From positions 908,195 to 972,194 of the forward strand of contig CAVVOF010000003.1 in assembly GCA_963749905.1 (NCBI GenBank): 64,000 nt of DNA. Direction: 5' to 3'. The notes under the pieces are model-generated. The model did not search any database, had not been told where the DNA came from, and was given only the letters and a program-made list of their open reading frames with translations. How positions within the stretch are numbered: the first letter of the stretch is position 1; each line of letters begins with the position of its first letter. Position numbers and translations under genes: made by a program. The DNA comes from an uncultured Actinomycetota bacterium (GTDB lineage Bacteria > Actinomycetota > Actinomycetes > S36-B12). Shown here piece by piece: positions 2,323 to 62,814 of the stretch.

Positions 2323-3759
2323 GTGGACGCGACGGAGGATCTGACCGAGGTCTGGGCCACCGCCCTCGGGAGTCTCGGCGACGGCAACCTCACCCCTCAG
2401 CAGCGGGCCTTCGTCAACCTCACCCGTCCGATGGGCCTGGTCGAGGACACCGCCCTCATCGCCGCCCCCAATGAGTTCACCAAGGACGTCCTCGAGACGC
2501 GCCTGCGGCCCATGGTCGTCCACGCCCTGTCTCAGACCCTCGGGCGGGAGATCCGTCTCGCCGTCACCGTCGATCCCTCCATCGACCCGGGCATCGAGGA
2601 GGCGACCGACGAGGTGGCCGATGCCACGTATGCGCCGCCCCGTACGGCGCCGGTACCGGTCCAGGAGCGGCGAGAGGAAGCACAACGCCCGGGCGCCGGA
2701 TCGCCCGGCACCCGTAGCGAGGACGGGCGGCTGAACGACAAGTACACGTTCGACACCTTCGTCATCGGATCGAGCAACCGCTTCGCCCATGCCGCGGCGG
2801 TCGCTGTGGCCGAGCAGCCCGCCCGCGCCTACAACCCGCTGTTCATCTACGGGGGCTCGGGGCTCGGCAAGACCCACCTGCTGCACGCGATCGGCCACTA
2901 CACCCGCACCCTGTACAGCGGCACTCGCGTTCGCTACGTCAGTTCCGAGGAGTTCACCAACGAGTTCATCAACTCCATTCGCGATGACAAGGCAGCCAGC
3001 TTCCAGCGGCGGTACCGCGATGTCGACGTCCTGCTGGTCGACGACATCCAGTTCCTCAGTGGCAAGGTCCAGACCCAGGAGGAGTTCTTCCACACGTTCA
3101 ACACGCTGCACAACGCGAACAAGCAGATCGTCGTGACGTCCGACCTGCCGCCGAAGCAGCTGCCCGACTTCGAGGACCGGATGCGCTCCCGCTTCGAATG
3201 GGGTCTGATCACCGATGTCCAGCCACCTGATCTCGAGACCCGCATCGCCATCCTGCGCAAGAAGTCCATTCAGGAACGCTTGCAGGCCCCGCCCGAAGTG
3301 CTCGAGTTCATCGCCTCGAAGATCTCCAGCAATATCCGCGAGCTCGAGGGCGCACTCATTCGGGTGACCGCGTTCGCCTCGCTGAACCGGCAACCCGTCG
3401 ACCTCGCCATCACCGAGGTCGTCCTCAAGGACCTGCTCCCGTCCGAGACCGGTCCGGAGATCACCGCAGGTCAGATCATGGCCGCCACCGCCCAGTACTT
3501 CGGCGTCACCGTCGACGACCTGTGCGGGTCGAGCCGATCCAGGGTCCTCGTCACGGCCCGGCAGATCGCCATGTACCTGTGCCGTGAGCTCACCGACCTG
3601 TCCCTACCGAAGATCGGCCAGGCCTTCGGTGGCCGCGACCACACCACCGTCATGCATGCGGACCGCAAGATCCGGCAATTGATGGCAGAGCGACGCAGCC
3701 TCTACAACCAGGTGACCGACCTGACCAGCCGCATCAAGTCGCAGCCACGCCCCATGTGA
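2323..3759 (+). CDS. dnaA: Chromosomal replication initiator DnaA
   Basis: 478-aa ORF with [21 protein letters not shown] (Walker A), [12 protein letters not shown], and C-terminal DNA-binding region [17 protein letters not shown]. Confidence 0.97.
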
Positions 3760-4240
3760 CTCGTACATCCCTACTGTCACACCTGGCACTGGTATCCATC
3801 TTTCCCCAACGTGTCCCCAGACTGTGGATAACTCTGCCTCAGGCGTCGACACCCACCCGCGGGCTCCGGTATCCCCACTGGTGCACATCCTGTGGACAAC
3901 TCCATCGACGGTCCCCCAGCTGTCCACAGCACCACGAGCGTCACTGGGGACGCCGGCCGTCGTTTCGCCCTCTGAACGGCTGCCGTCCACCGCTGTCCCC
4001 AGCCAATCGGCCGTTGTCCACAGCTTCACTCGTCCACGACACGCGTGCTGACCAGCCGAAACGCGGATCATCCACGGTGTCCACACCACCTATGACGATG
4101 ACGACATCTAGTCTCTAGGGAAGTCATTCCCCAGACTCAGGTGCACGGGGCGTGGATAACTCCGGTGCAGAACGGCACCTGCCTGCGCAGTACGCCCCAC
4201 TTGCTGTAAGACTGACGCCTTCGGCGGACTGGAGGACACG
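3760..4240. other. oriC (dnaA-dnaN spacer with DnaA-box cluster)
   Basis: 481-nt non-coding spacer. Boxes: TGTGGATAA 3823, TGTGGACAA 3891, cTGTCCACA 3920, TTGTCCACA 4014 (perfect), gTGTCCACA 4077, cGTGGATAA 4151. A somewhat AT-richer stretch lies around 4105-4135. Confidence 0.8.
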
Positions 4241-5365
4241 GTGAAGATAAGGGTCGAGCGTGACGTGCTCGCGGAGGCGGTCGCGTGGGCGGCCCGGACT
4301 CTGCCGTCCCGTCCCTCCCTTCCGGTGCTGGCCGGGCTGGTCCTCACGGCGGACGCCGACCAGTTGACGCTGAGCAGCTTCGACTACGAGGTGTCCGGGC
4401 GAGTGGACGTCGATGCGGACGTCACCGATCCGGGCACGGTCCTGGTCTCCGGTCGGCTGCTGGCCGACATCGCCCGCTCGCTTCCCGGTGCTCCGGTCAT
4501 GCTGGAGAGTGAGGGCACCCGGCTGGCCATCACCTGCGGGCGTTCGTCCTTCACGCTGCCGACCCTTCCCGTTGAGGACTACCCGCAGCTGCCGGTGATG
4601 CCGACGACATCGGGCACGGTCGGTGGATCCGCCTTCGCGGCCGCGGTTGCCCAGGTGGCGATCGCCGCCGGCCGCGATGACACCCTCCCGACGCTGACCG
4701 GCATCCGCATGGAGTTCGAGGGCAGCAATGTCACGCTCGCGGCGACCGATCGCTACCGCCTCGCGGTCCGGGAGTTCACCTGGCAGCCCGAGTCAACGAC
4801 GATGTCCGCACATGCCCTGGTGCCGGCTCGAACCCTTGCGGATACAGCGAAATCCCTGTCCGACGTGGAGAACATCATCATCGCGCTCGCGTCCGGCGGT
4901 GCCGGGGAGGGCCTGATCGGATTCGAGGGACACGGCCGTCGCACTACGACCCGGCTGCTGGACGGCGAGTTCCCCAAGTACCGATCGCTGCTCCCTTCCG
5001 AGTCGTCCGCGACGGCGAACGTCGAGACCTCAGCTCTCGCGGATGCGGTCAAGCGGGTGGCTCTCGTCGCCGAGCGCAACACCCCGGTACGCATGCACTT
5101 CGAGGGATCGGAACTGACCCTGACCGCAGGCGCGGGTGACGACGCCCAGGCCCTCGAGGTCATCGAGGTGGCCCTGGACGGCGACGCGATCGACATCGCC
5201 TTCAACCCGGCCTACCTGCTCGATGGTCTCTCGGCCACCGGGGCCGACGAGGTCCGGTTCTCCTTCACCCAGTCGACGCGTCCGGCGGTGATCACGGCGG
5301 CCGGCGAGTCCGCGTCGGGAGACGACTACCGCTACCTGCTGATGCCGGTACGCCTCACCGGCTGA
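4241..5365 (+). CDS. dnaN: DNA polymerase III beta sliding clamp
   Basis: GTG start preceded by GGAGGA. Translation MKIRVERDVLAEAVAWAARTLPSRPSLPVLAGLVLTAD...LLMPVRL. Confidence 0.95.
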   Translation: MKIRVERDVLAEAVAWAARTLPSRPSLPVLAGLVLTADADQLTLSSFDYEVSGRVDVDADVTDPGTVLVSGRLLADIARSLPGAPVMLESEGTRLAITCGRSSFTLPTLPVEDYPQLPVMPTTSGTVGGSAFAAAVAQVAIAAGRDDTLPTLTGIRMEFEGSNVTLAATDRYRLAVREFTWQPESTTMSAHALVPARTLADTAKSLSDVENIIIALASGGAGEGLIGFEGHGRRTTTRLLDGEFPKYRSLLPSESSATANVETSALADAVKRVALVAERNTPVRMHFEGSELTLTAGAGDDAQALEVIEVALDGDAIDIAFNPAYLLDGLSATGADEVRFSFTQSTRPAVITAAGESASGDDYRYLLMPVRLTG

Positions 5366-5369
5366 CGCC

Positions 5370-6515
5370 GTGTGGGTCTCCGCCCTCCGTCTCACGGACT
5401 TCCGCTCGTACGAGCAGGCTGAGCTCAGCCTTCAGGAAGGGGCCTCGACATTCGTCGGACCCAATGGTCAGGGCAAGACCAACGTCGTCGAGGCGATTGC
5501 CTACGCGGCCGTCCTTGGCAGCCATCGCGTCGCCAGTGACGCGCCGCTCGTGCGCGTGGGCGCGGAACGGGCCGTCGTTGCGGTCGAGATCGTGCGTGAC
5601 GATCGACGCGCCTTGGTTGAGATCGAGATCAATCCGGGACGGAGCAACCGCGCGCGGATCAACCGCAGTCCCGCGACCCGGGCCCGTGATGTCCTCGGCA
5701 TTCTGCGGGCCGTGGTCTTCGCCCCTGAGGATCTGGCACTGGTCAAGGGCGATCCCTCCGAGCGTCGGCGTTTCCTCGACGAACTCATCGTGCAGAGATC
5801 GCCCCGACTACAGGGCGTGCGCTCCGACTACGACCGAATCCTCAAGCAGCGCAACGCATTATTGAAGTCGGCTGCCTCTGCGCGACGCGCGGATCCGGCC
5901 GAGGTGATCCGCACGCTGGAAGTGTGGGACGAGCAGCTCGCGACGGTCGGTGGAGAGCTGGTGGCGGCGCGAGTGGCCGCACTGGACGACCTCACCCCGT
6001 GGCTGGCCGACGCCTACGCCGTCATCGCCGGCGGCGGAGATGCCGTCAGTGCCGCTGAGGCCCAGGGCAGGTATGTGAGCGGCTCGGGAGCCGCGGACGA
6101 TCTCGGGTCGGACCGAGAGGCGTGGCGCACGAGCCTGCTGTCCGCGATCGAGAGCCGCCGCAAGGAGGAACTCGATCGAGGGATCACCCTGGTCGGACCA
6201 CATCGCGACGACCTCGAGCTGCGGATCGGGCCGCATCCGGCGAAGGGATACGCCTCGCACGGCGAGTCATGGTCGCTGGCTCTCGCCTTGCGACTGGCCT
6301 CCATGGACGTGCTCCGATCAGACGGCGACGATCCGATCCTCATCCTGGACGACGTGTTCGCCGAGCTGGACTCCCTTCGTCGTACGCGGCTGAGCGAGAG
6401 AGTGCGCTCGTGCACTCAGGTCCTGCTGACGGCGGCAGTGTTGGAAGACATCCCCGACGCCTTGCAGGGCCGGCGCTTCAGCGTCAGCCGAGGCTTGGTG
6501 ACGCCGGATGACTGA
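5370..6515 (+). CDS. recF: DNA replication/repair protein RecF
   Basis: LRLTDFRSYEQAELSL..FVGPNGQGKTNVVEAI (Walker A), and C-terminal ILILDDVFAELD. Confidence 0.95.
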   Translation: MWVSALRLTDFRSYEQAELSLQEGASTFVGPNGQGKTNVVEAIAYAAVLGSHRVASDAPLVRVGAERAVVAVEIVRDDRRALVEIEINPGRSNRARINRSPATRARDVLGILRAVVFAPEDLALVKGDPSERRRFLDELIVQRSPRLQGVRSDYDRILKQRNALLKSAASARRADPAEVIRTLEVWDEQLATVGGELVAARVAALDDLTPWLADAYAVIAGGGDAVSAAEAQGRYVSGSGAADDLGSDREAWRTSLLSAIESRRKEELDRGITLVGPHRDDLELRIGPHPAKGYASHGESWSLALALRLASMDVLRSDGDDPILILDDVFAELDSLRRTRLSERVRSCTQVLLTAAVLEDIPDALQGRRFSVSRGLVTPDD

Positions 6516-9223: not shown

Positions 9224-11761
9224 GTGCCTGACGACATCGAGACCGAAGTGGCCGTCGACCACGGCCCGCATGGTCGGATCGACCCGGTCGACCTGCAGAC
9301 CGAGATGCAGCGGTCCTACCTGGACTACTCCATGTCGGTCATCGTCTCCCGTGCCCTGCCGGATGTCCGCGACGGCATGAAGCCGGTGCACCGCCGCGTC
9401 ATCTACGCGATGTACGACGGCGGCTACCGGCCGGATCGCAACTTCTCCAAGAGCGCGCGCGTGGTGGGCGACGTCATGGGCAACTACCACCCGCACGGCG
9501 ACAGCGCGATCTATGACGCCCTGGTCCGGCTCGCCCAGCCGTGGTCGCTTCGCTACCCGCTGGTGCAGGGCCAGGGCAACTTCGGATCGCCGGGCAACGA
9601 CCCGCCCGCCGCCCAGCGATACACGGAGTGCCGGATGGCTCCGCTCGCCATGGAGATGGTGCGCGACATCGACGAGGAGACCGTCGACTTCGGCCCCAAC
9701 TACGACGGCCGCACGCAGGAACCGCGCGTGCTGCCGAGCAGGTTCCCGAACCTGCTGGTCAACGGCAGCTCGGGCATCGCCGTCGGCATGGCGACCAACA
9801 TCCCTCCGCACAACCTGCGCGAGGTGTCGTCCGCAGCACTCTGGCTGCTGGAGAACCCGGAGGCGTCCCGCGAGGAGCGCCAGGCCGCGCTGATGGAACG
9901 GGTCAAGGGGCCGGACTTCCCGACCGGCGCCTTGATCGTCGGCCGCCGCGGGATCGAGGACGCGTACCGCACCGGCCGCGGCTCGATCACGATGCGGGCC
10001 GTCGTCGAAGTCGACGAGGACGCGCGCGGGCGCCAGGTCCTCGTCGTCACCCAACTGCCGTACCAGGTGAACCCCGACAACCTGCTGCTGCGCATCGCAG
10101 AACTAGTGGGAGACGGCAAGCTCACCGGCATCGCCGACGTCCGCGACGACTCGTCGTCGCGAACCGGCATGCGGCTGATCATCGAGCTCAAGCGTGATGC
10201 GGTCGCCCAGGTCGTGCTGAACAACCTGTTCAAGCACACCCAGTTGCAGGACACCTTCGGCGCCAACATGCTCGCACTGGTCGACGGCGTGCCGCGCACG
10301 CTGACGCTCGAGCAGTTCGTCCGGTACTGGGTGGCCCATCAGATCGAGGTCATCCAGCGGCGCACCCGGTACCGCTTGCGGAAGGCGGAGGAGCGCGCGC
10401 ACATCCTGCGCGGCTACCTCAAGGCGCTCGATGCGCTCGACGACGTCATCGCGCTCATCCGGGCATCCGCGACCGTCGACGACGCCCGCGTGGGATTGAT
10501 GGAGCTCCTCGAGATCGACGAGCTGCAGGCCACCGCCATCCTCGACATGCAGCTTCGGCGACTTGCCGCCCTGGAGCGACAGAAGATCATCGACGAGTAC
10601 GAAGACCTGATGACTCGGATCGCGGACTACAACGACATCCTCTCCAGCGAGTCGCGGCAGCGATCCATCGTCGCCACGGAGCTGACCGAGATCACCGACA
10701 AGTACGGCGACGAACGACGCACGGACTTCGTGGCGTGGGACGGCGACGTCACGGATGAGGACCTGATCGCGGTCGAGGACGTCGTCGTCACCATCACCTC
10801 GGGCGGCTACGTCAAGCGGACGAAGACCGACCTGTACCGAGAGCAGCGACGAGGCGGCAAGGGCGTGCGTGGGGCCTCCCTGCGGCAGGACGACGTCGTC
10901 GACCACATGTTCGTCACGACCACCCATCACTGGATCCTGTTCTTCACGGACCGCGGCCGGGTCTATCGAGCGAAGGCCTACCAGCTGCCCGACACCGGTC
11001 GCGACGGCAAGGGCCAGCACGTGGCGAACCTGCTGGCCTTCCAGCCGGACGAGTCCATCGCTCAGGTACTGGCCATCCCCGACTACCAGGCGTCCGAGCA
11101 TCTGGTGCTCGCCACTCGTCGCGGCATGGTGAAGAAGACGCGACTCTCGGAGTACGACTCGGTCCGGCAGGGCGGGATCATCGCGATCAACCTGTCGGAC
11201 GATGACGAGCTCATCTCGGCCCGGCTGGTCTCCGGTGCCGACGAACTGCTCCTGGTCTCCCGCAAGGGCATGTCCGCCCGGTTCTCGGCCGACGACGACA
11301 CCTTGCGACCCATGGGTCGCGCGACCGGTGGCGTGATCGGCATGCGGTTCCGTGAAGGGGATGCTCTGCTGGCGATGGATGTGGCGCGCGCCGACACGTT
11401 CGTGGTGACCATCACCGACGGCGGCTATGCCAAGCGCACGTCGATCGTGGAGTGGGCGACCAAGGGGCGCGGCATCCTTGGTGTACGTGCGATGAAGCTG
11501 GTCGAGGAGCGCGGCTCGTTGGTCGGCGCGATGGTGTGCGAGGAGAGCGACCAGATCTACGCCATCGCCTCCAACGGGATCGTCATTCGCACTCGTGTCG
11601 GTGAGATCCGACCCTCAGGGCGTGACACCATGGGCGTCACGCTGATGAATCTCGCCGAGGGCGACACGGTGGTGGCCGTGGCCCGAAGCGGTGACGTGGA
11701 CGAGGACGAGCTGGACGGCCCGCCCGAGGGCGACGCCGACCAGGGTGAGGCGGTCGAGTGA
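9224..11761 (+). CDS. gyrA: DNA gyrase subunit A
   Basis: 845-aa ORF with [21 protein letters not shown] and [23 protein letters not shown] (QRDR region). Active-site segment AQRYTECRM. Confidence 0.97.
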
Positions 11762-12150
11762 CGGGCGGTGACGTGACCCGTGGCCCGAAGCGGGCCCGGC
11801 TCTACGTCACACGCGTGGACCCGTGGTCCGTCACCAAGGCCGCGTTCATGCTCGCACTCGCCATCGGCGTCGTCATCATCGTCGCGGTCGCTGCGCTGTG
11901 GTGGGTCCTGGATGTCACCGGCGTGTTCGTCGCCATCTCCCGCACCATCGACGACGTGATCGGCACCGCCACCACGGGCTTCGACCTGCTCAGCTACCTG
12001 GAGTTCTCGCGGGTGCTCGGCGTGGCGGTCGTCGTGGCATCGGTGGAGATCGTGCTGGTGTCCTTCCTGGCCACGCTCTTCACGATCATCTACAACCTCA
12101 CCGTCGGCCTGACGGGCGGCATCGAGGTCGTCTTGTCGGACGAGGCGTAG
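11758..12150 (+). CDS. DUF3566-type transmembrane protein
   Basis: [30 protein letters not shown] followed by further hydrophobic segments. 4-nt overlap with gyrA. Conserved position after gyrA. Confidence 0.7.
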
Positions 12151-12202: not shown

Positions 12203-12277
12203 GGGCCTATAGCTCAGTTTGGTTAGAGCGCTTCCCTGATAAGGAAGAGGTCGGTGGTTCAAGTCCACCTAGGCCCA
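12203..12277 (+). tRNA. tRNA-Ile (anticodon GAU)
   Basis: Cloverleaf by hand: acceptor GGGCCTA/TAGGCCC, anticodon arm CTTCC-CTGATAA-GGAAG, T arm GGTGG-TTCAAGT-CCACC, 75 nt. Confidence 0.9.
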
Positions 12278-12324
12278 CCGAATCCGTTGACCACACAGTG
12301 CTGAACGAGGGGTAGGCTCGGCCC

Positions 12325-12466: not shown

Positions 12467-12539
12467 GGGGGCTTAGCTCAGCTGGTAGAGCGCTGCCTTT
12501 GCAAGGCAGAAGTCAGGGGTTCGAGTCCCCTAGCCTCCA
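12467..12539 (+). tRNA. tRNA-Ala (anticodon UGC)
   Basis: Acceptor GGGGGCT/AGCCTCC with the G3:U70 alanine identity pair. Anticodon arm CTGCC-TTTGCAA-GGCAG. T arm AGGGG-TTCGAGT-CCCCT. 73 nt. Confidence 0.9.
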
Positions 12540-12590
12540 CGTCACTCTCGCGGGGGATCGACCTCATCGCCGTGTGCGTCGCATGACAAG

Positions 12591-41921: not shown

Positions 41922-42803
41922 GTGCCCGAGCTGCCCGAGGTCGAGGCGCTCGCCCGGTTCCTGGGGGAGCGCACCTCGGGTGCCCGAGTCGCGAGCCTGA
42001 CGCTGGCCAGCCTCTCGGCGCTGAAGACCGTCCAGCCGTCCCTGACGGATCTCGCAGGTCAGCGGGTCGACAGCGTGGCCCGTCGAGGGAAGTTCCTCGA
42101 CCTGGCGACTGAGGACGGGCTGCACCTCGTGTGGCATCTGTCGCGTGCCGGCTGGGTGCAGTGGCGGGACGAGGTGCCGGACAGCCCGGTGCGTCCGGGC
42201 AAGGGGCCACTCGCGCTGCGCGTCGCGTTCGTCAACGACGATGGCGAGCCCATCGGCGGTTTCGACGTGACGGAGGCCGGCACGCAGAAGCGGCTCGCCA
42301 TCTATGTGGTGCGCGACCCGGGGGAGGTGCCCGGGATCGCCCGGCTTGGGCCGGACGCGCTGGGTGACGAGCTGACGCAGGAGGAGTTCGCCCGGATCCT
42401 GACCGCGGCAGGGCGGGCGCAGATCAAAGGCGTCCTGCGCGACCAGTCCGTCATCGCGGGTATCGGCAATGCCTACAGCGACGAGATCCTGCACGCGGCC
42501 CGACTCTCACCGTTCCACCCCTGCTCGAGCCTGACGCCGGACGAGGTGGCAGCGCTGTACGAGTGTCTGCGGGCGGAGCTGTCGGCAGCCGTGGAGCGCA
42601 GTCGGGGGCACGGCACCGGCACCCTCAAGTCGGAGAAGAAGGCCAATCTCGCGGTGCACGGACGGGCTGGCGAGGCCTGCCCGGTGTGCGGAGACGTGGT
42701 CAGGGAGGTGTCCTTCGCGAACTCGGCCCTGCAGTACTGCGCGACCTGCCAGACCGGAGGAAAACTGCTGGCCGATCGTCGGATGAGCCGCCTCCTGAAG
42801 TAG
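41922..42803 (+). CDS. Fpg/Nei family DNA glycosylase
   Basis: MPELPEVE N-terminus, H2TH IKGVLRDQSVIAGIGNAYSDEILH, zinc finger CPVCGDVV...YCATCQ. Confidence 0.87.
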   Translation: MPELPEVEALARFLGERTSGARVASLTLASLSALKTVQPSLTDLAGQRVDSVARRGKFLDLATEDGLHLVWHLSRAGWVQWRDEVPDSPVRPGKGPLALRVAFVNDDGEPIGGFDVTEAGTQKRLAIYVVRDPGEVPGIARLGPDALGDELTQEEFARILTAAGRAQIKGVLRDQSVIAGIGNAYSDEILHAARLSPFHPCSSLTPDEVAALYECLRAELSAAVERSRGHGTGTLKSEKKANLAVHGRAGEACPVCGDVVREVSFANSALQYCATCQTGGKLLADRRMSRLLK

Positions 42804-42805
42804 TC

Positions 42806-42875
42806 CCCCGATGCTGCGGCACTCGTGGCTGGACAAATCGGACGCGGACCAGCCACGAGTGCCGCAGCATCGGGG
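42806..42875. repeat. 70-nt hairpin repeat, copy 1 (27-bp perfect stem, 16-nt loop)
   Basis: CCCCGATGCTGCGGCACTCGTGGCTGG-ACAAATCGGACGCGGA-CCAGCCACGAGTGCCGCAGCATCGGGG. It starts 2 nt after the fpg/nei stop and ends at the base before the DUF559 stop. Confidence 0.85.
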
Positions 42876-43755
42876 TCAGCGGCGAGCCGCCCCGTCGCGC
42901 AGGGCTGCGCGCACCCGGGCGACGATCCGCGGCGGGTAGCGCATGTCCTCCCCGACCACCTCGACGACGATCCACCCGTGCTCGCGCAGCACCGCGCGCC
43001 GCGCCGCGTCCTTGGCACGCTGCGCCATCGGGGCGTGCACCTCGCCGTCGTACTCGACGATCACGCGTTCCCGGCGGAAGACGAGGTCTCCCCGCGCCAG
43101 GAACTGGCCGTCGGCATCGGTGATGACGCCGTTGACCTCGGGGCGCGGCAGCCGCGCGCGACGAAGGAGGACGCGCAGATGGGACTCGCGCGGCGACTCG
43201 GCCCCCGGATCCAGCCAGGGCAGCTGCGGACACCGCTCGGGCCCGACCGGGGTAGCGCAGTCGTCGTTGCGCCACGTCGAGCAGGTCGGCAGCTGAGACC
43301 GCATGCCGACGCATGACGACGTCTCCGAGCGCGACGAGGTGAGTGAAGTCCAGCAGGGCGGCGAGGTCTACATACGTTCGGGCCGGAGTCGTCACCCGGA
43401 ACTCCCCGAGCACCGACACATCCTCGGGCGGAAGTTGTGCGTGGTGGGTCACGATGTCTCGCCGCCGCGGCCGCGAGTGCTGGCGATCCGTGGTGACATG
43501 GATCGCGCCTTCGCGGAGTGTCGACGGCAGCGGAAGGCCGTGCAGCCGGGCTGCAGCGGTGTGCGACAGGACGATGTCGTCGCGCAGCGGCAGTTGGGCC
43601 GCCTGCAGTCGTCGGACCTCGCCTGACGTCCCGTCGCACTGGGGCAGTCGGACACCCCGACTGGTGAGTACGAAGTCGCGACGTCGGGTCTGCGCCCGGC
43701 TCAGCGCTGCGGAGCCGTCCGCCGTGACGAGGAAGGGAGCGCGCGCGTCGTCCAT
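42876..43755 (-). pseudogene. AbiEi-like N-domain + DUF559 (Vsr-like endonuclease fold) gene, one frame change near 43225-43245
   Basis: N-part MDDARAPFLVTADG...LSHTAAARLHGLPLP...TPARTYVDLAALL..RRLRYPGRARA in one frame. LPWLDPGAESPRESHLRVLLRRARLPRPEVN...VIVEYDGEVH in another. Confidence 0.7.
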
Positions 43756-43854
43756 GCGGGAACGGTGGGACAGCGCGACGGCGGCTGTCCGACCTGCCGT
43801 GGCCGCTGTGGACGACCGACGCCGTGCCCCGGCCGTGCGCTTATCCCGACTACC

Positions 43855-43924
43855 CCCCGATGCTGCGGCACTCGTGGCTGGACAAATCGGACGCGGACCA
43901 GCCACGAGTGCCGCAGCATCGGGG
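43855..43924. repeat. 70-nt hairpin repeat, copy 2 (identical to copy 1, same orientation)
   Basis: Same 70-mer. Flanking C/G extends the stem to 28 bp. It lies 100 nt upstream of the DUF559 ATG and 25 nt upstream of the methyltransferase ATG. Confidence 0.85.
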
Positions 43925-43949: not shown

Positions 43950-44660
43950 ATGTTCGCGAAGAAGACGAAGGCGACCGGAGCGCTCCCCCCGGGCAAGTAC
44001 CGCATGGGCGGCAAGCACTTCAAGAACGACGCGGCCTTCATCAAGACCGCGGTTCGAGACGTGAAGCGCCTCGAGCGCTACTGCGGACTGACGACGGACT
44101 CCCGCCTCCTCGACTGGGGGTGCGGCGCCGGCCGACTGGCTGTCGGGGTCCGTGAGCGCTTCGCCGACCAGGGCGGGCGCATCGCCGACTACCACGGCGT
44201 CGACGTCCAGCCCGAGCTCATCGACTGGGCCGAGGAGAACCTGGCCGGTCCTGGCTACCGGTTCACCTGCGTCGACGTCAGCAATGAGCGCTACAACCCG
44301 GACGGCACCCCCGAGCGCACCCTGGCAGCCGACCCGGGCACCGTCGACGTCCTCTACGCCTACTCGGTGTTCTCCCACATGAACGACGAGGACACCGCCG
44401 CCTACCTAGGGCTCATCTCCGAGGCGCTCGCACCGAGCGGTAAGGCCTTCGTCACCTGCTTCGTCGAAGAGGACGTCCCGGGCTGGGAGGAGAATCCGGA
44501 CGGGTACGGCCCGCTCGAATGGAAGGGCCGCCTGCACTGCACCCGGTTCGCCCGCTGGCACTTCGAAGACCACGTGAACGCCGCGCGACTGGCGGTTGAC
44601 CGGTTCGAGTACGGCCAGGAGACAGACGGCCAGAGCCTCTACGTACTACGCAAAAGGTAG
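43950..44660 (+). CDS. Class I SAM-dependent methyltransferase
   Basis: Motif I LLDWGCGAGRLAVGV, post-I HGVDV, VLYAYSVFSHM. No DNA-methyltransferase (D/N)PP(Y/F) or PC motif seen. Confidence 0.8.
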   Translation: MFAKKTKATGALPPGKYRMGGKHFKNDAAFIKTAVRDVKRLERYCGLTTDSRLLDWGCGAGRLAVGVRERFADQGGRIADYHGVDVQPELIDWAEENLAGPGYRFTCVDVSNERYNPDGTPERTLAADPGTVDVLYAYSVFSHMNDEDTAAYLGLISEALAPSGKAFVTCFVEEDVPGWEENPDGYGPLEWKGRLHCTRFARWHFEDHVNAARLAVDRFEYGQETDGQSLYVLRKR

Positions 44661-44768: not shown

Positions 44769-46046
44769 ATGCGCCGCGCCCTGACTGTTGCTCTCCTGAG
44801 CGTCTCCATCGCCGTCACCGGACTGACTGCCGCCGCCCCGGCGCAGGCCGTCACCGGTGGGCCCATCGACGACCTCGCGTTCGGGATGCACATCCCGCAG
44901 ATCTCGCAGGGCGAGGCCACGTCCGTCAACGAGGGCACCGTCCGGCTGTGGGACTCGGGGGTGGCCTGGGGCCAGGTCAACCAGGCGAACGGCAAGTACT
45001 GGTGGAACGGCCTCGACGCCGCCATCGCCAACGCCAACCAGCAGAACCTGCAGATCCTCTACGTCCTCGGTTCGACGCCCAAGTGGGCGGCAACCAGCAC
45101 CAAGCAGGGCACGTACCCCAACAAGGGCGCGGCGTCGATGCCCAAGAACATCAAGTACTGGAAGAACTGGGTGACGGCGGTCGTCAAGCGCTACGGCAGC
45201 TCGATCGACGCGTACCAGATCTGGAACGAGGCGAACCTGCAGACGTTCTGGCAGGGCACCCCGAAGCAGATGGCACAGCTGACGCAGCAGGCCTACAAGA
45301 TCATCCGCAAGTACGACCCGACGGCGAAGGTGGTGGCCGCCAGCACCACGGTGCGCCTGCAGAGCGCCTACAAGAAGTTCTTCCCGAAGTACCTGAAGGA
45401 GCTCAAGAAGGTCAAGTGGCCGATCGACGTCATGTCCGTGCACCTGTACCCGGCCAGCACCGGCACTCCCGCTGATCGCGTGAACTTCATCAAGCAGGTC
45501 CAGAAGGACATGAAGAAGGGCAAGGTCCCGAAGAGCAAGGCGCTGTGGGACACCGAGATCAACTACGGCATCGCCGGTCCGGGCTCGAGCAACAAGCGCA
45601 AGGTGATCGACGGCGCCCAGGCGGCCGCGTGGGTGGCGTCGACGTACCTCGACAACGTGCTCTACGGGGTCCAGCGGGCCTACTGGTACTACTGGTTCAA
45701 CAACTCGAACCTCGTCGGCATCCAGATGTTCAACGGCACTGCCGGGGCGACGGGCTACCAGACGGTGCGCAACTGGCTCAGCGGCGGGTTCTACTCGTGC
45801 ACCGAGGGCACGCCGAACGTCTGCCAACTCGGCGACAACGTCGCGCCGAAGGTGGTCGCGTGGGCGGACAAGGGCTCAGGTACCTTTACGGTGCCCGCAA
45901 ACGCGACCGTCACCTGCAATGCGCTGAACCAGTGCACCCCGGTGGCTCCCGGGTCGCAGGTGACGATTGGAAGCATGCCGCAATGGTTCGGAACGCCCGC
46001 AGTCCCCGCCCCGCCGGTCGATCCCACCGCGCCGCCCGCCTCGTAG
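44769..46046 (+). CDS. Secreted clan GH-A (TIM-barrel, GH39/GH5-like) glycoside hydrolase
   Basis: Signal MRRALTVALLSVSIAVTGLTAAAPAQA. YQIWNEANL (acid/base NE). LWDTEINYG (nucleophile E). Lys-rich and visibly lower GC than its neighbours. Confidence 0.75.
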   Translation: MRRALTVALLSVSIAVTGLTAAAPAQAVTGGPIDDLAFGMHIPQISQGEATSVNEGTVRLWDSGVAWGQVNQANGKYWWNGLDAAIANANQQNLQILYVLGSTPKWAATSTKQGTYPNKGAASMPKNIKYWKNWVTAVVKRYGSSIDAYQIWNEANLQTFWQGTPKQMAQLTQQAYKIIRKYDPTAKVVAASTTVRLQSAYKKFFPKYLKELKKVKWPIDVMSVHLYPASTGTPADRVNFIKQVQKDMKKGKVPKSKALWDTEINYGIAGPGSSNKRKVIDGAQAAAWVASTYLDNVLYGVQRAYWYYWFNNSNLVGIQMFNGTAGATGYQTVRNWLSGGFYSCTEGTPNVCQLGDNVAPKVVAWADKGSGTFTVPANATVTCNALNQCTPVAPGSQVTIGSMPQWFGTPAVPAPPVDPTAPPAS

Positions 46047-47326
46047 CACTCACGGCGGCGGGCACGGCCATGGCCCTGCTCGTGGCGGGCTGCTCCTCGG
46101 GCGGTGACGAGCCGGCCCCGAGCCAGTCCGCGGCGGCGTCCGGTTCCGCCGCGCCGGCCGCCGACGGCGTGCCCGCGTCCCTCGTCGGCATGCATGTCGA
46201 GGGCGAGGAGGCCGGCAACTGGCCGTCCGCCCCCTTCGGCGCATTGCGGCTGTGGGACAACGGCACCGGCTGGTCGCAGATCGAGCTGGAGCCGGGCGTC
46301 TACAAGTGGGACAACCTCGAGGGCGCTCTCGAGAACGCGGCGTCCAAGGGCATGTCCGACATCCTGATGGTGCTCGGCACCACCCCCGAGTGGAACGCCA
46401 CGAAGATCACCGACACGGACTATCCGCAGCCGGGCGCCGCCAGCGCGCCGAAGGATCTGGCGGCCTGGGACGCATGGGTCACCGAGGTGGCCACCCGGTA
46501 CAAGGGCCGCATCTCCGCCTACCAGATCTGGAACGAGGCGAACCTCAAGAACTTCTGGGGTGGCACTCCCGAGGAGATGGCCGAGCTCACGAAGCGGGCC
46601 TACGACATCATCAAGGCGATCGACCCCGACGCGCTCGTGGTTTCCGCTTCGCCCACCACCCGGTTGACCGCCGCGTTCGACAAGTTCTTCCCCGCGTACC
46701 TCACCGCGCTGGGTGAGCAGGGCTGGCCGGTCGACGTGATCGCCATCCACACGTATCCCGCGGGCGATGGCGATCCCGTTGCACGTGGTGCGGCGATCTC
46801 GAAGGCGCGCGAGTACCTGGCGGCCGCGGGCGCACCCGACCTGCCGCTGTGGGACACCGAGCTGAACTTCGGCATCGCCGGCCCGGGCGACATCGCCGGC
46901 CAGGACATCACCGGACCCCGCGCGGCCGGTTTCGTGGTCCGCACCTACATCGACGACCTTCGGTACGACGTGGGCCGTTCCTACTGGTACATCTGGACCC
47001 AGCGACCCGGTGGCAACACCGGCGCTGTCCGGGGCATCCAGGCCTACCCCGGCTCCGACGCAGAGCAGGGCTTCTTCGCCCTGGAGAACTGGGTGATCGG
47101 GGCGTCGTTCGACGGGTGCACCGACGACGCCACCGGGACGGTGACGTGCAACTTCTCGAAGGACGGCACGTCGTGGGTCGTGGCGTGGGCCGAGAACGGC
47201 GATGCCGCCTACACGGTGCCCGAGGGCGCTCGGCTGGTCTGCGACCCGCTGGCCAACTGCCAGGAGGTCGAGTCGGGGGCCGCGATCACCGTCACCGAGG
47301 TCCCGGTCCGGTTCTACTTCCAGTAG
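45983..47326 (+). CDS. Lipoprotein paralog of the preceding GH-A hydrolase
   Basis: MVRNARSPRPAGRSHRAARLVALTAAGTAMALLVAGC (lipobox). YQIWNEANL. LWDTELNFG. The proposed start overlaps the upstream gene by 64 nt (start uncertain). Confidence 0.72.
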   Translation: MVRNARSPRPAGRSHRAARLVALTAAGTAMALLVAGCSSGGDEPAPSQSAAASGSAAPAADGVPASLVGMHVEGEEAGNWPSAPFGALRLWDNGTGWSQIELEPGVYKWDNLEGALENAASKGMSDILMVLGTTPEWNATKITDTDYPQPGAASAPKDLAAWDAWVTEVATRYKGRISAYQIWNEANLKNFWGGTPEEMAELTKRAYDIIKAIDPDALVVSASPTTRLTAAFDKFFPAYLTALGEQGWPVDVIAIHTYPAGDGDPVARGAAISKAREYLAAAGAPDLPLWDTELNFGIAGPGDIAGQDITGPRAAGFVVRTYIDDLRYDVGRSYWYIWTQRPGGNTGAVRGIQAYPGSDAEQGFFALENWVIGASFDGCTDDATGTVTCNFSKDGTSWVVAWAENGDAAYTVPEGARLVCDPLANCQEVESGAAITVTEVPVRFYFQ

Positions 47327-56477: not shown

Positions 56478-56488
56478 CTCCGTCCCGT

Positions 56489-56552
56489 CGTTGAGTGCGG
56501 ACTTGTTGCGGACCCAGGGGGGCAGAAACGCGCAACAACTCCGCACTCAACG
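56489..56552. terminator. 22-bp hairpin between convergent MFS and rmlC genes
   Basis: CGTTGAGTGCGGACTTGTTGCG ... CGCAACAACTCCGCACTCAACG (one mismatch). The right arm includes the rmlC stop codon. Confidence 0.5.
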
Positions 56553-57149
56553 AATGGAGCGGAGTTCTTCGACGAAGGCCTGGCACTCGGCGTAGTCGGG
56601 CAGCAGCCCCTGCTCGAGCGCCTCGGCGAGGGTCGGTGCGCCCTCGTCCTTGGGCGAGAGCAGCAGTTCCATGTCCGGCCACGGCAGGCCGAGCGCCGGA
56701 TCGACGGGTGTGACGCCATGCTCGTGGCTGGGGGCGTACGGCTCCGAGCACAGGTAGCCGACGGTCACCGACTCCGTCAGGGCGCAGAACGCATGCCCGA
56801 GCCCCTCGGCGATGTACAGGCCGTTGCGCAGCTCCGCGGACAGCTCGATGGCGTCCCACTGGCCGAACGTCGGTGAGCCGACGCGGATGTCGACCACCAC
56901 GTCGAGGATGCTTCCCTCGAAGCACTGCACGTACTTGGCCTGCCCCGGCGGCACGTCCGCGAAGTGCACCCCGCGCACCGTGCCGGCCTTGGACACCGAG
57001 ATGTTCATCTGCTGAAGATCGAACGGATGGCCGATGGCCTCCTCGAACACCGAGGCCTTGAAGGACTCGAGGAACACGCCTCGATCATCGGGCCGGAGGA
57101 CGGGGGTGAACTCCCACACGCCGTCGATGCCGCGAGCGGTGACCTCCAC
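56547..57149 (-). CDS. rmlC: dTDP-4-dehydrorhamnose 3,5-epimerase
   Basis: FTPVLRPDDRGVFLESF, VRGVHF, KYVQCFEGSILDVVVDIRVGSPTFGQW, GLYIAEGLGHAF. GTG start assumed. Confidence 0.88.
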   Translation of the reverse strand: MEVTARGIDGVWEFTPVLRPDDRGVFLESFKASVFEEAIGHPFDLQQMNISVSKAGTVRGVHFADVPPGQAKYVQCFEGSILDVVVDIRVGSPTFGQWDAIELSAELRNGLYIAEGLGHAFCALTESVTVGYLCSEPYAPSHEHGVTPVDPALGLPWPDMELLLSPKDEGAPTLAEALEQGLLPDYAECQAFVEELRSIR

Positions 57150-62745: not shown

Positions 62746-62751
62746 GGGCTG

Positions 62752-62809
62752 TGCTGCGGCACTTGTGGCTGGCCGGTGTCCGGAATGTCCAGCCACGAGT
62801 GCCGCAGCA
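62752..62809. repeat. Hairpin repeat, copy 3 (inverted orientation, variant loop)
   Basis: TGCTGCGGCACTTGTGGCTGG-CCGGTGTCCGGAATGT-CCAGCCACGAGTGCCGCAGCA. The stem matches copies 1 and 2 with one change. The reverse complement of the loop matches the copy-1 loop at 10/16 positions. Confidence 0.8.
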
Positions 62810-62814
62810 AGGAG

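Follow-up and report, generated by a model that had tools for sequence, protein, structure and literature searches.

In a 64,000-nt stretch of DNA from an uncultured Actinomycetota bacterium (contig CAVVOF010000003.1 of assembly GCA_963749905.1, positions 908,195 to 972,194; hereafter, the window), a gene of the DUF559 nuclease family lies between genes for an Fpg/Nei DNA glycosylase and a methyltransferase, with one copy of a long palindrome at each of its ends. We find that it exemplifies a widespread actinobacterial module: a gene for a protein of ~290 amino acids, comprising a winged-helix–like part and a Vsr/DUF559 domain, bracketed by two cognate perfect palindromes of ~65 nt. The module has apparently gone undescribed so far. 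Full-text literature searches (DUF559, Vsr-like palindromic repeats, and REPIN/RAYT in Actinobacteria) returned no description of an association between DUF559 and palindromes. Within that literature, this agrees with an earlier reading of the same DNA from its letters and open reading frames (ORFs) (the sequence-only reading), which knew of no such system.

The two focal palindromes form a 71-nt direct repeat with 100% identity (Table 1). Each is a perfect inverted repeat with a 16-nt loop and a stem of 27 bp (copy 1) or 28 bp (copy 2). Copy 1 begins 2 nt past the fpg/nei stop codon (42801-42803) and directly adjoins, at 0 nt, the minus-strand DUF559 stop codon (42876-42878). Copy 2 lies inside the 194-nt divergent gap between the DUF559 start (43755) and the methyltransferase start (43950). 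The sequence-only reading had described two identical perfect hairpins in direct orientation, the first fitted exactly between two stop codons and the second in the divergent gap, and each of these observations stands. The whole unit of hairpin, gene, and leader measures 1,049 bp, and the G+C content of the cassette is 72%, against 69% for the window. The focal hairpin has a predicted folding energy of −65.3 kcal/mol as RNA (z = −9.9) and of −41.3 and −40.7 kcal/mol for the two strands as DNA (z = −12 and −10, respectively). Its 27-nt arm has four matches in the window and none in 100 shuffles. There was no Rfam match at the focal hairpins.

The focal DUF559 reading frame, already called frameshifted in the sequence-only reading, is indeed broken by a single extra G relative to 29 homologues, and is otherwise complete. 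Because the change sits in a homopolymer, it may be a sequencing error; the other reading is a genuine recent inactivation. In the reconstructed protein of 292 amino acids, a winged-helix/AbiEi-like part at the N-terminus precedes a C-terminal Vsr/DUF559 PD-(D/E)XK nuclease domain. Pfam DUF559 matches it with 26.7 bits (cut-off, 20.6) and also matches 29 of 30 family members, in which the only other Pfam matches are MTES_1575 and a weak AbiEi_1 (2 of 30). No NCBIfam match was found for the protein. In its structure model (pLDDT, 92.6), the C-terminal domain resembles the catalytic domain of the homing endonuclease I-Bth0305I (PDB 3r3p; Foldseek, target-normalized TM 0.74), and the whole protein resembles the AbiEi-type winged-helix protein Rv2827c (1zel; Foldseek probability 0.99, TM 0.37). 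PDB 3hrl is a further match (E = 0.024). Residues E236, D238, H242, and D251 (E-x-D-x3-H...D) are invariant across the alignment with homologues. Pfam, Foldseek, and these invariant residues together place the protein in the Vsr/DUF559 PD-(D/E)XK clade.

Among 5.8 billion database proteins, the nearest to the focal DUF559 protein is 73% identical. The family of DUF559 proteins with these two domains comprises 2,708 clusters (50% identity) at E ≤ 1e-30 and 18,357 at E ≤ 1e-10. Members are rare on plasmids and all but missing from phages; the family is essentially chromosomal. Ranked by E-value, the top Foldseek matches in the PDB are Toxoplasma and Tetrahymena mitoribosomal proteins (9g6k_L9, 9i05_Xg, and 6z1p_AS), a hint from predicted structure that a DUF559-like domain might occur in these mitoribosomes.

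Table 1. Features of the DUF559 locus and related palindromes in the window.
Feature	Position	Strand	Remarks
Fpg/Nei DNA glycosylase gene	41922..42803	+	left flank
Palindrome copy 1	42805..42875		3' side of DUF559 gene; covariance model 63.3 bits, E = 3e-11
DUF559 gene	42876..43755	-	reconstructed 292-aa protein
+1 frameshift in GGG run	43218..43220	-	homologues read ...AVS AAA WLDP...
Leader	43756..43853	-	98 nt, upstream palindrome to start codon; part of cassette
Leader motif TCCACA	43807..43812	-	conserved, strand-specific
Palindrome copy 2	43854..43924		5' side of DUF559 gene; same sequence as copy 1
Class I S-adenosylmethionine (SAM) methyltransferase gene	43950..44660	+	right flank; Methyltransf_11/12/25 matches
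Solo palindrome	56486..56555		between convergent MFS and rmlC genes; 61.6 bits
Solo palindrome	62746..62814		between convergent glycosyltransferase gene and Ig-like-domain gene; 42.7 bits

A palindrome family at the ends of DUF559 genes

We collected 79 loci encoding relatives of the DUF559 protein, scanning one genome per species. Most belong to metagenome-assembled Nanopelagicales and other Actinomycetes; Aeromicrobium, Microbacterium, and Luteipulveratus are represented as well. In many of them, the DUF559 gene lies between direct repeats of 60-72 nt, each of which is itself a long hairpin, with a sequence that differs from locus to locus. A plain hairpin census (at least 15 paired bases, loop of at most 45 nt, 589 kb) returned 133 hairpins, 106 of which fall within the 61 kb next to gene ends, an enrichment of about 34-fold. 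Ninety-two of the census hairpins align to a single consensus, CCGnTGAGTGGnCAGTTGTGG, loop, CCACAACTGnCCACTCAnCGG.

The covariance model made from these 92 hairpins finds 122 sites in the 79 loci (~590 kb). Of these, 115 (94%) are at the ends of DUF559 genes, 59 upstream and 56 downstream, and the other 7 are solos, in about 528 kb of flanks. Both copies are found in 50 of the 79 loci, one copy in 15 (several of them cut by a contig end), and none in 14; these 14 include the Aeromicrobium and Microbacterium homologues, whose hairpins diverge from the model. The upstream copy ends a median of 127 nt ahead of the start of the protein match. The downstream copy typically begins no more than about 20 nt from the stop codon, with which it often overlaps. 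DUF559 genes at other loci are hairpin-flanked too, a point that the sequence-only reading had proposed to check. What it named as grounds for abandoning its proposal, a REP-like repeat (repetitive extragenic palindrome) with no enrichment next to DUF559 genes, is not what we find, since hairpin and gene are strongly associated across the loci in general.

The architecture is also present in isolates (Luteipulveratus flavus and Microbacterium sp. E-13), and a perfect 24-bp hairpin lies 98 nt upstream of an Arthrobacter homologue (32% identity). The loci represent at least a dozen chromosomal sites common to several species, some genomes carry at least three paralogues, and other DUF559 sites have no methyltransferase neighbor. 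Among complete loci, 71 of 73 have an intact DUF559 ORF of at least 270 amino acids. The leader carries a conserved motif: TCCACA occurs at 5.5/kb in 50 leaders, against a background of 0.14/kb (38-fold). TCCACA(G) is often present twice per leader (leaders of L004-L082), and in the leader of L014 (~3890-3960), a 15-nt unit, catgccagacagtcg, forms four tandem repeats directly ahead of the DUF559 start.

All 22 stem pairs of the palindrome family show compensatory double changes, in 1-52 sequences per pair and in at least 11 sequences for 21 of the 22 pairs. Stem changes are almost always from Watson-Crick to Watson-Crick, with 0-4 one-sided changes per pair, and the stem mismatches show no excess of sense-strand G:T. 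It is the half nearest the hairpin base that is conserved. No T-run of at least 4 was found after any of 51 downstream hairpins, on either strand, and the hairpins were not flagged by a terminator scan. Because changes are compensatory, G:T is not in excess, and T-runs are missing, it is the DNA's strict Watson-Crick palindromy that is conserved, and perfect pairing in the family is under selection. These patterns suit a DNA hairpin or cruciform, or palindrome-regenerating copying, better than they suit an RNA structure or a classical terminator. We set aside an RNA element or terminator, given that wobble pairs are rare and there is neither a sense-strand bias nor a T-run. The same T-run count and terminator scan speak against an intrinsic terminator in the strict sense (a short stem plus a T-run), and the median stem of 22 bp across the family looks long for terminators. 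Terminators without a U-tract have been described in Actinobacteria, and the hairpins may be of that kind.

In the window, the covariance model has exactly four members, the focal pair and two solo palindromes. The sequence-only reading was right about the focal pair and had missed both solos. The hairpin is not a locus-specific ancestral terminator, as the palindromes form a dispersed family that also occurs solo. The solo at 56.5 kb fills the entire gap between the MFS and rmlC genes and provides the final rmlC codons and stop. It is missing in three rmlC relatives (L171, L168, and L170), where the two genes abut or overlap; none of the three has a cassette at this site. From such comparisons, solo palindromes appear to be gained and dynamic. 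By eye, the second solo shares 20 of 21 stem positions with the focal palindrome, and its loop resembles the reverse complement of the focal loop. The genes beside the two window solos have no homologues in the flanks of the retrieved DUF559 loci. Solo palindromes often lie between convergent genes, and third copies near cassettes share the local palindrome type (L019, L020, L058, and L068).

Gain, loss, and inversion at conserved sites

We located relatives of the focal site via the Fpg protein. No DUF559 gene separates fpg from the methyltransferase gene in L001 and L002 (Fpg 82% identical) or in L003 (84%); the latter gene comes directly after fpg, and the spacer between them measures 96-107 nt. 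In L003, a single hairpin sits in this spacer where the window has one, likewise starting CCCCGATGC (model score, 53.8 bits); the fpg-methyltransferase spacers of L001 and L002 hold no recognizable hairpin copy. The site is occupied in the window, L025, L069, L010, L011, and L163-L166. In L069, L165, L166, and the contig of P0031, the DUF559 gene and fpg converge, which is the arrangement of the window; the two are co-directional in L025, L163, L164, L010, and L011. These empty, solo-hairpin, and either-orientation states are interspersed on the Fpg, methyltransferase, and acetyl-CoA hydrolase trees.

The empty site that the sequence-only reading had pictured (fpg, one hairpin, methyltransferase) thus exists in L003. 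The arrangement it had regarded as contrary to a cassette, two hairpins at the site without the gene, was never seen in any gene-less relative examined; these have one copy or none. Its proposal that the cassette derives from a single ancestral hairpin is supported to the extent that the empty site has one hairpin or none. A recent arrival does not fit, since the DUF559 proteins at the fpg site are just 60-71% identical to each other, compared with 75-100% for Fpg and 80-92% for the methyltransferase. For the same reason, a simple young insertion was set aside. With site orthologues this divergent and the nearest known protein 73% identical, the DUF559 gene is an old, fast-evolving occupant of the fpg site. 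As the gene is not recent, the 100% identity of its two palindromes points to homogenization or re-duplication.

Similar concerted change is seen elsewhere. The stems of the two brackets of one gene have a mean identity of 89%, whereas copies that occupy one site in different species share 70%; in 25 of 30 comparisons, it is the partner bracket that a copy resembles more closely. An identity of 100%, loop included, is reached by the window pair alone. By inspection, the bracket loops are direct in some loci and inverted in others, which is expected if the arms recombine. Both cassette orientations relative to the flanks were found at 5 of 11 multi-genome sites, so the stronger pattern of both orientations at every conserved site can be discarded. 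Protein identity correlates with palindrome-arm identity even where the loci compared are at different sites (Spearman 0.54, 837 pairs). In a protein tree (neighbor-joining, no support values), proteins from sites E, H, and I come out as polyphyletic, and the palindromes sort by protein clade and not by site. That the palindrome type follows the protein clade across sites suggests that gene and palindromes travel together over long times. Taken together, sequence comparisons show that conserved intergenic sites gain and lose the module, that it is flipped there, and that its brackets are homogenized within a genome.

The wider neighborhood is also partly conserved. Past the methyltransferase gene, two GH39-like glycoside hydrolase paralogues lie in tandem (44769-46046 and about 46100-47326), an arrangement kept in relatives. 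In the same neighborhood in L004 (1-2442), a DUF559 cassette adjoins the acetyl-CoA hydrolase gene, and no fpg was detected between them. Among the matches listed in a metagenome scan with Fpg, all of at most 65% identity, none has a methyltransferase or DUF559 gene nearby. Elsewhere in the window, tRNA-Ile(GAT) (12203-12279) lies beside tRNA-Ala(TGC) (12467-12540) in an rRNA-spacer–like arrangement; Rfam finds no rRNA in the window.

A proposed cut-and-copy cassette and its rivals

The reading that we favor, with a probability of roughly 0.4, is that the module is a palindrome-recognizing nuclease cassette, spread and homogenized by cut-and-copy repair and lost by recombination between its brackets. 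We infer the binding, cleavage, and repair-based spread from patterns in sequence. The protein would recognize the conserved base-proximal half of its own palindrome, probably extruded as a hairpin or cruciform, and cut it. The break would be repaired by copying another copy of the palindrome. Where the template borders the nuclease gene, synthesis could continue through leader and gene to the second palindrome, converting a solo site into palindrome-gene-palindrome in what would amount to homing through ectopic gene conversion. The symmetry of the target would let the cassette land in either orientation. Repeated rounds of cutting and copying would keep the four arms uniform and so account for the 100% identity of the window pair. 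Recombination between the brackets would delete the gene and leave a solo palindrome, giving the empty one-palindrome site of relatives. In a variant of this scheme, the cruciform would be cleaved at both of its bases and then filled in, duplicating the whole palindrome; the data fit this alternative and copy repair alike.

Several observations weigh against a cassette that cuts and copies. Both brackets stay intact beside the nuclease gene, where simple homing would expect cutting, and the window copy is frameshifted yet holds the most identical bracket pair. Inheritance at conserved sites appears to be largely vertical: 35 of 43 nearest protein neighbors share a site, i.e., they are mostly orthologues, and near-identical cassettes at different sites were not seen among the loci examined. 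Thus, any movement must be rare or old. That most ORFs are intact also counts against an actively mobile element. The correlation between protein and palindrome-arm identity is uncorrected for kinship of the loci, and the unsupported protein tree spans quite divergent genomes at sites E, H, and I. In L001, two palindromes of the type GCGAGTGGTCACTGCGCGCA (10337-10407 and 12042-12090) lie on either side of a Bac_transf sugar-transferase gene, and no DUF559 gene is close by. In L029, the 3' end of a flanking gene is duplicated outside both palindromes (3661-3766 and 4925-5029; 106 nt, the last 72 nt identical), a duplication better explained by general recombination than by a dedicated mechanism. 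Given the lack of near-identical copies at different sites, the intact ORFs, and the largely vertical inheritance, the protein might instead have a domesticated, RAYT-like role or be associated only passively with recombination-prone palindromes.

The RAYT-like role would mean that it is the palindromes that replicate, and that a resident, vertically inherited DUF559 nuclease, flanked by its clients, copies or maintains them in trans. The cognate palindromes around the gene, its mostly vertical inheritance at conserved sites, and its intact ORFs are as this explanation would have them, and solos are gained at new sites, one in the window sharing the focal stem. REPIN/RAYT systems themselves are, according to two preprints, vertically inherited and long-lived (bioRxiv 10.1101/2022.05.22.493013; 10.1101/2021.07.10.451892). 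We nevertheless consider it unlikely, given that solos are scarce relative to gene-flanking copies (7 versus 115 in the loci, 2 versus 2 in the window), that some genomes have three or more paralogues, that same-site cassettes are polyphyletic, and that the protein is a PD-(D/E)XK nuclease without an HUH/Y1 domain. Rather improbable, in our view, is a passive association, in which terminator- or REP-like palindromes are recombination hot spots of the host, and an ordinary DUF559 repair or defense gene was inserted, duplicated, and inverted there without acting on them. Palindromes directly past stop codons or between convergent genes would be unsurprising in that case, as would the essentially chromosomal family, the L001 pair around another gene, and ordinary duplications of flanking sequence in L029 and L020. 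In the latter, the 3' end of a flanking gene is duplicated (3619-3811 and 5442-5634; 196 nt, 79% identity), with a palindrome after each copy. Such an association is hard to reconcile with 94% of the model matches being exactly at the ends of these genes, with a palindrome type that tracks protein clade across sites, and with the concerted evolution of the two copies. Nor does the upstream copy have anything to terminate, and no T-runs come after the hairpins, whose stems look long for terminators.

AbiEi antitoxins autoregulate via inverted repeats, and the N-terminal part resembles the AbiEi-type Rv2827c. The palindromes could accordingly be operators for the winged-helix part, serving autoregulation or looping between the copies, with the downstream copy also acting as a terminator; the conserved base-proximal stem half and leader motif would suit this role. 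We regard it as a poor candidate, because covariation at the non-conserved stem positions needs intrastrand pairing or palindrome-generating copying and not dimer binding, and because the upstream copy ends about 100-130 nt ahead of the start codon. Solos without a gene run counter to it as well, and empty sites, either orientation, and a conserved nuclease active site are left unexplained. Least probable by far is an accident unique to the window, a recent tandem duplication or an assembly artifact. The window pair alone is identical over its full length, but the same architecture recurs in dozens of independent genomes, including the two isolates, and the Arthrobacter replicon has the upstream hairpin.

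More broadly, and still more tentatively, the cut-and-copy reading would make the module a previously unrecognized class of selfish or semi-domesticated actinobacterial elements, with a winged-helix plus Vsr-fold nuclease as its sole protein and a pair of cognate long palindromes around the gene as its hallmark, which spreads to palindromes and homogenizes them through structure-directed cleavage and copy repair. A new element class may be the consequence if the mechanism holds. Solos between convergent genes would then be targets or footprints of the element, and thousands of DUF559 proteins would gain a function. The near-constant pairing with a co-evolving palindrome provides a concrete candidate substrate for this very large, uncharacterized family. 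To our knowledge, few extragenic palindromes have been characterized in the phylum Actinobacteria. The module could account for long perfect palindromes between convergent genes in actinobacterial genomes, and for local gene inversions and presence/absence polymorphisms. It might also supply nucleases, specific for structure or sequence, that could be put to practical use.

Comparison with known systems

In its C-terminal catalytic domain, the protein shares a Pfam/PD-(D/E)XK clade with Vsr of dcm-vsr systems (PMC3424549). Those systems pair a single-domain protein of ~150 amino acids with a C5-methyltransferase, and can be ruled out, as the window protein has two domains and 292 amino acids. 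The neighboring gene, with Pfam matches to Methyltransf_11/12/25, does not encode a DNA C5-cytosine methyltransferase and occurs at the fpg site with or without the DUF559 gene. We also rule out an AbiE toxin-antitoxin system, since the neighbors are fpg and the methyltransferase gene, with no toxin gene, and AbiEi_1 matches just 2 of 30 members.

As in integron cassettes, one ORF is directly followed by a structured palindromic site, with the stop codon abutting the hairpin. Integron attC sites are imperfect palindromes with extrahelical bases. Here, in contrast, the stems are perfect, cassettes are single and not in arrays, and each has its own leader. An integron cassette is thus excluded by perfect stems of 27-28 bp and the lack of arrays. 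No Pfam match to an integrase family was found among the six neighboring genes scanned, and no wider intI search was made. In IS200/IS605 elements, too, a single gene has a subterminal DNA hairpin at each end, thought to be a recognition structure. Unlike them, the module has no Y1 TnpA/TnpB, its hairpins are two copies of one palindrome, and multi-copy near-identical elements were not seen. Membership of either the IS200/IS605 or the RAYT group is ruled out by the lack of an HUH/Y1 domain (Pfam). The occupied site with two direct repeats and the empty site with one (L003) recall solo long terminal repeats, but no reverse transcription is involved and the repeats are 70-nt palindromes.

In behavior, the closest systems are REP/REPIN-RAYT and free-standing homing endonuclease genes. 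In the former, a gene is flanked by a palindromic extragenic repeat also found elsewhere in the genome (Bertels and Rainey 2011, PMC3116915; PMC5581495). The module shares with them cognate palindromes that both flank the gene and occur dispersed, mostly vertical, long-lived inheritance, and an apparent match between repeat and gene. It differs in having a Vsr/DUF559 PD-(D/E)XK domain plus a winged-helix–like part in place of an HUH/Y1 transposase, and in its near-perfect palindromes of ~65 nt. There are also several paralogous genes per genome, each with its own palindrome type, and solos are few relative to gene-flanking copies: counted over the window and loci only, there are 4 palindromes in 64 kb and 7 solos in flanks.

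Free-standing homing endonucleases (EDxHD; I-Bth0305I, PDB 3r3p) have the same nuclease fold, presence/absence at a conserved site, as observed here at the fpg site, and faster evolution than the flanks. In the module, by comparison, there is no intron or intein, and the presumed target, the palindrome, is intact on both sides of the gene. Genomes have many paralogous sites, and the ORFs are overwhelmingly intact and not cycling through decay. If the proposed mechanism is correct, the module would be a nuclease-based counterpart to both the REP/RAYT and the homing-endonuclease paradigms.

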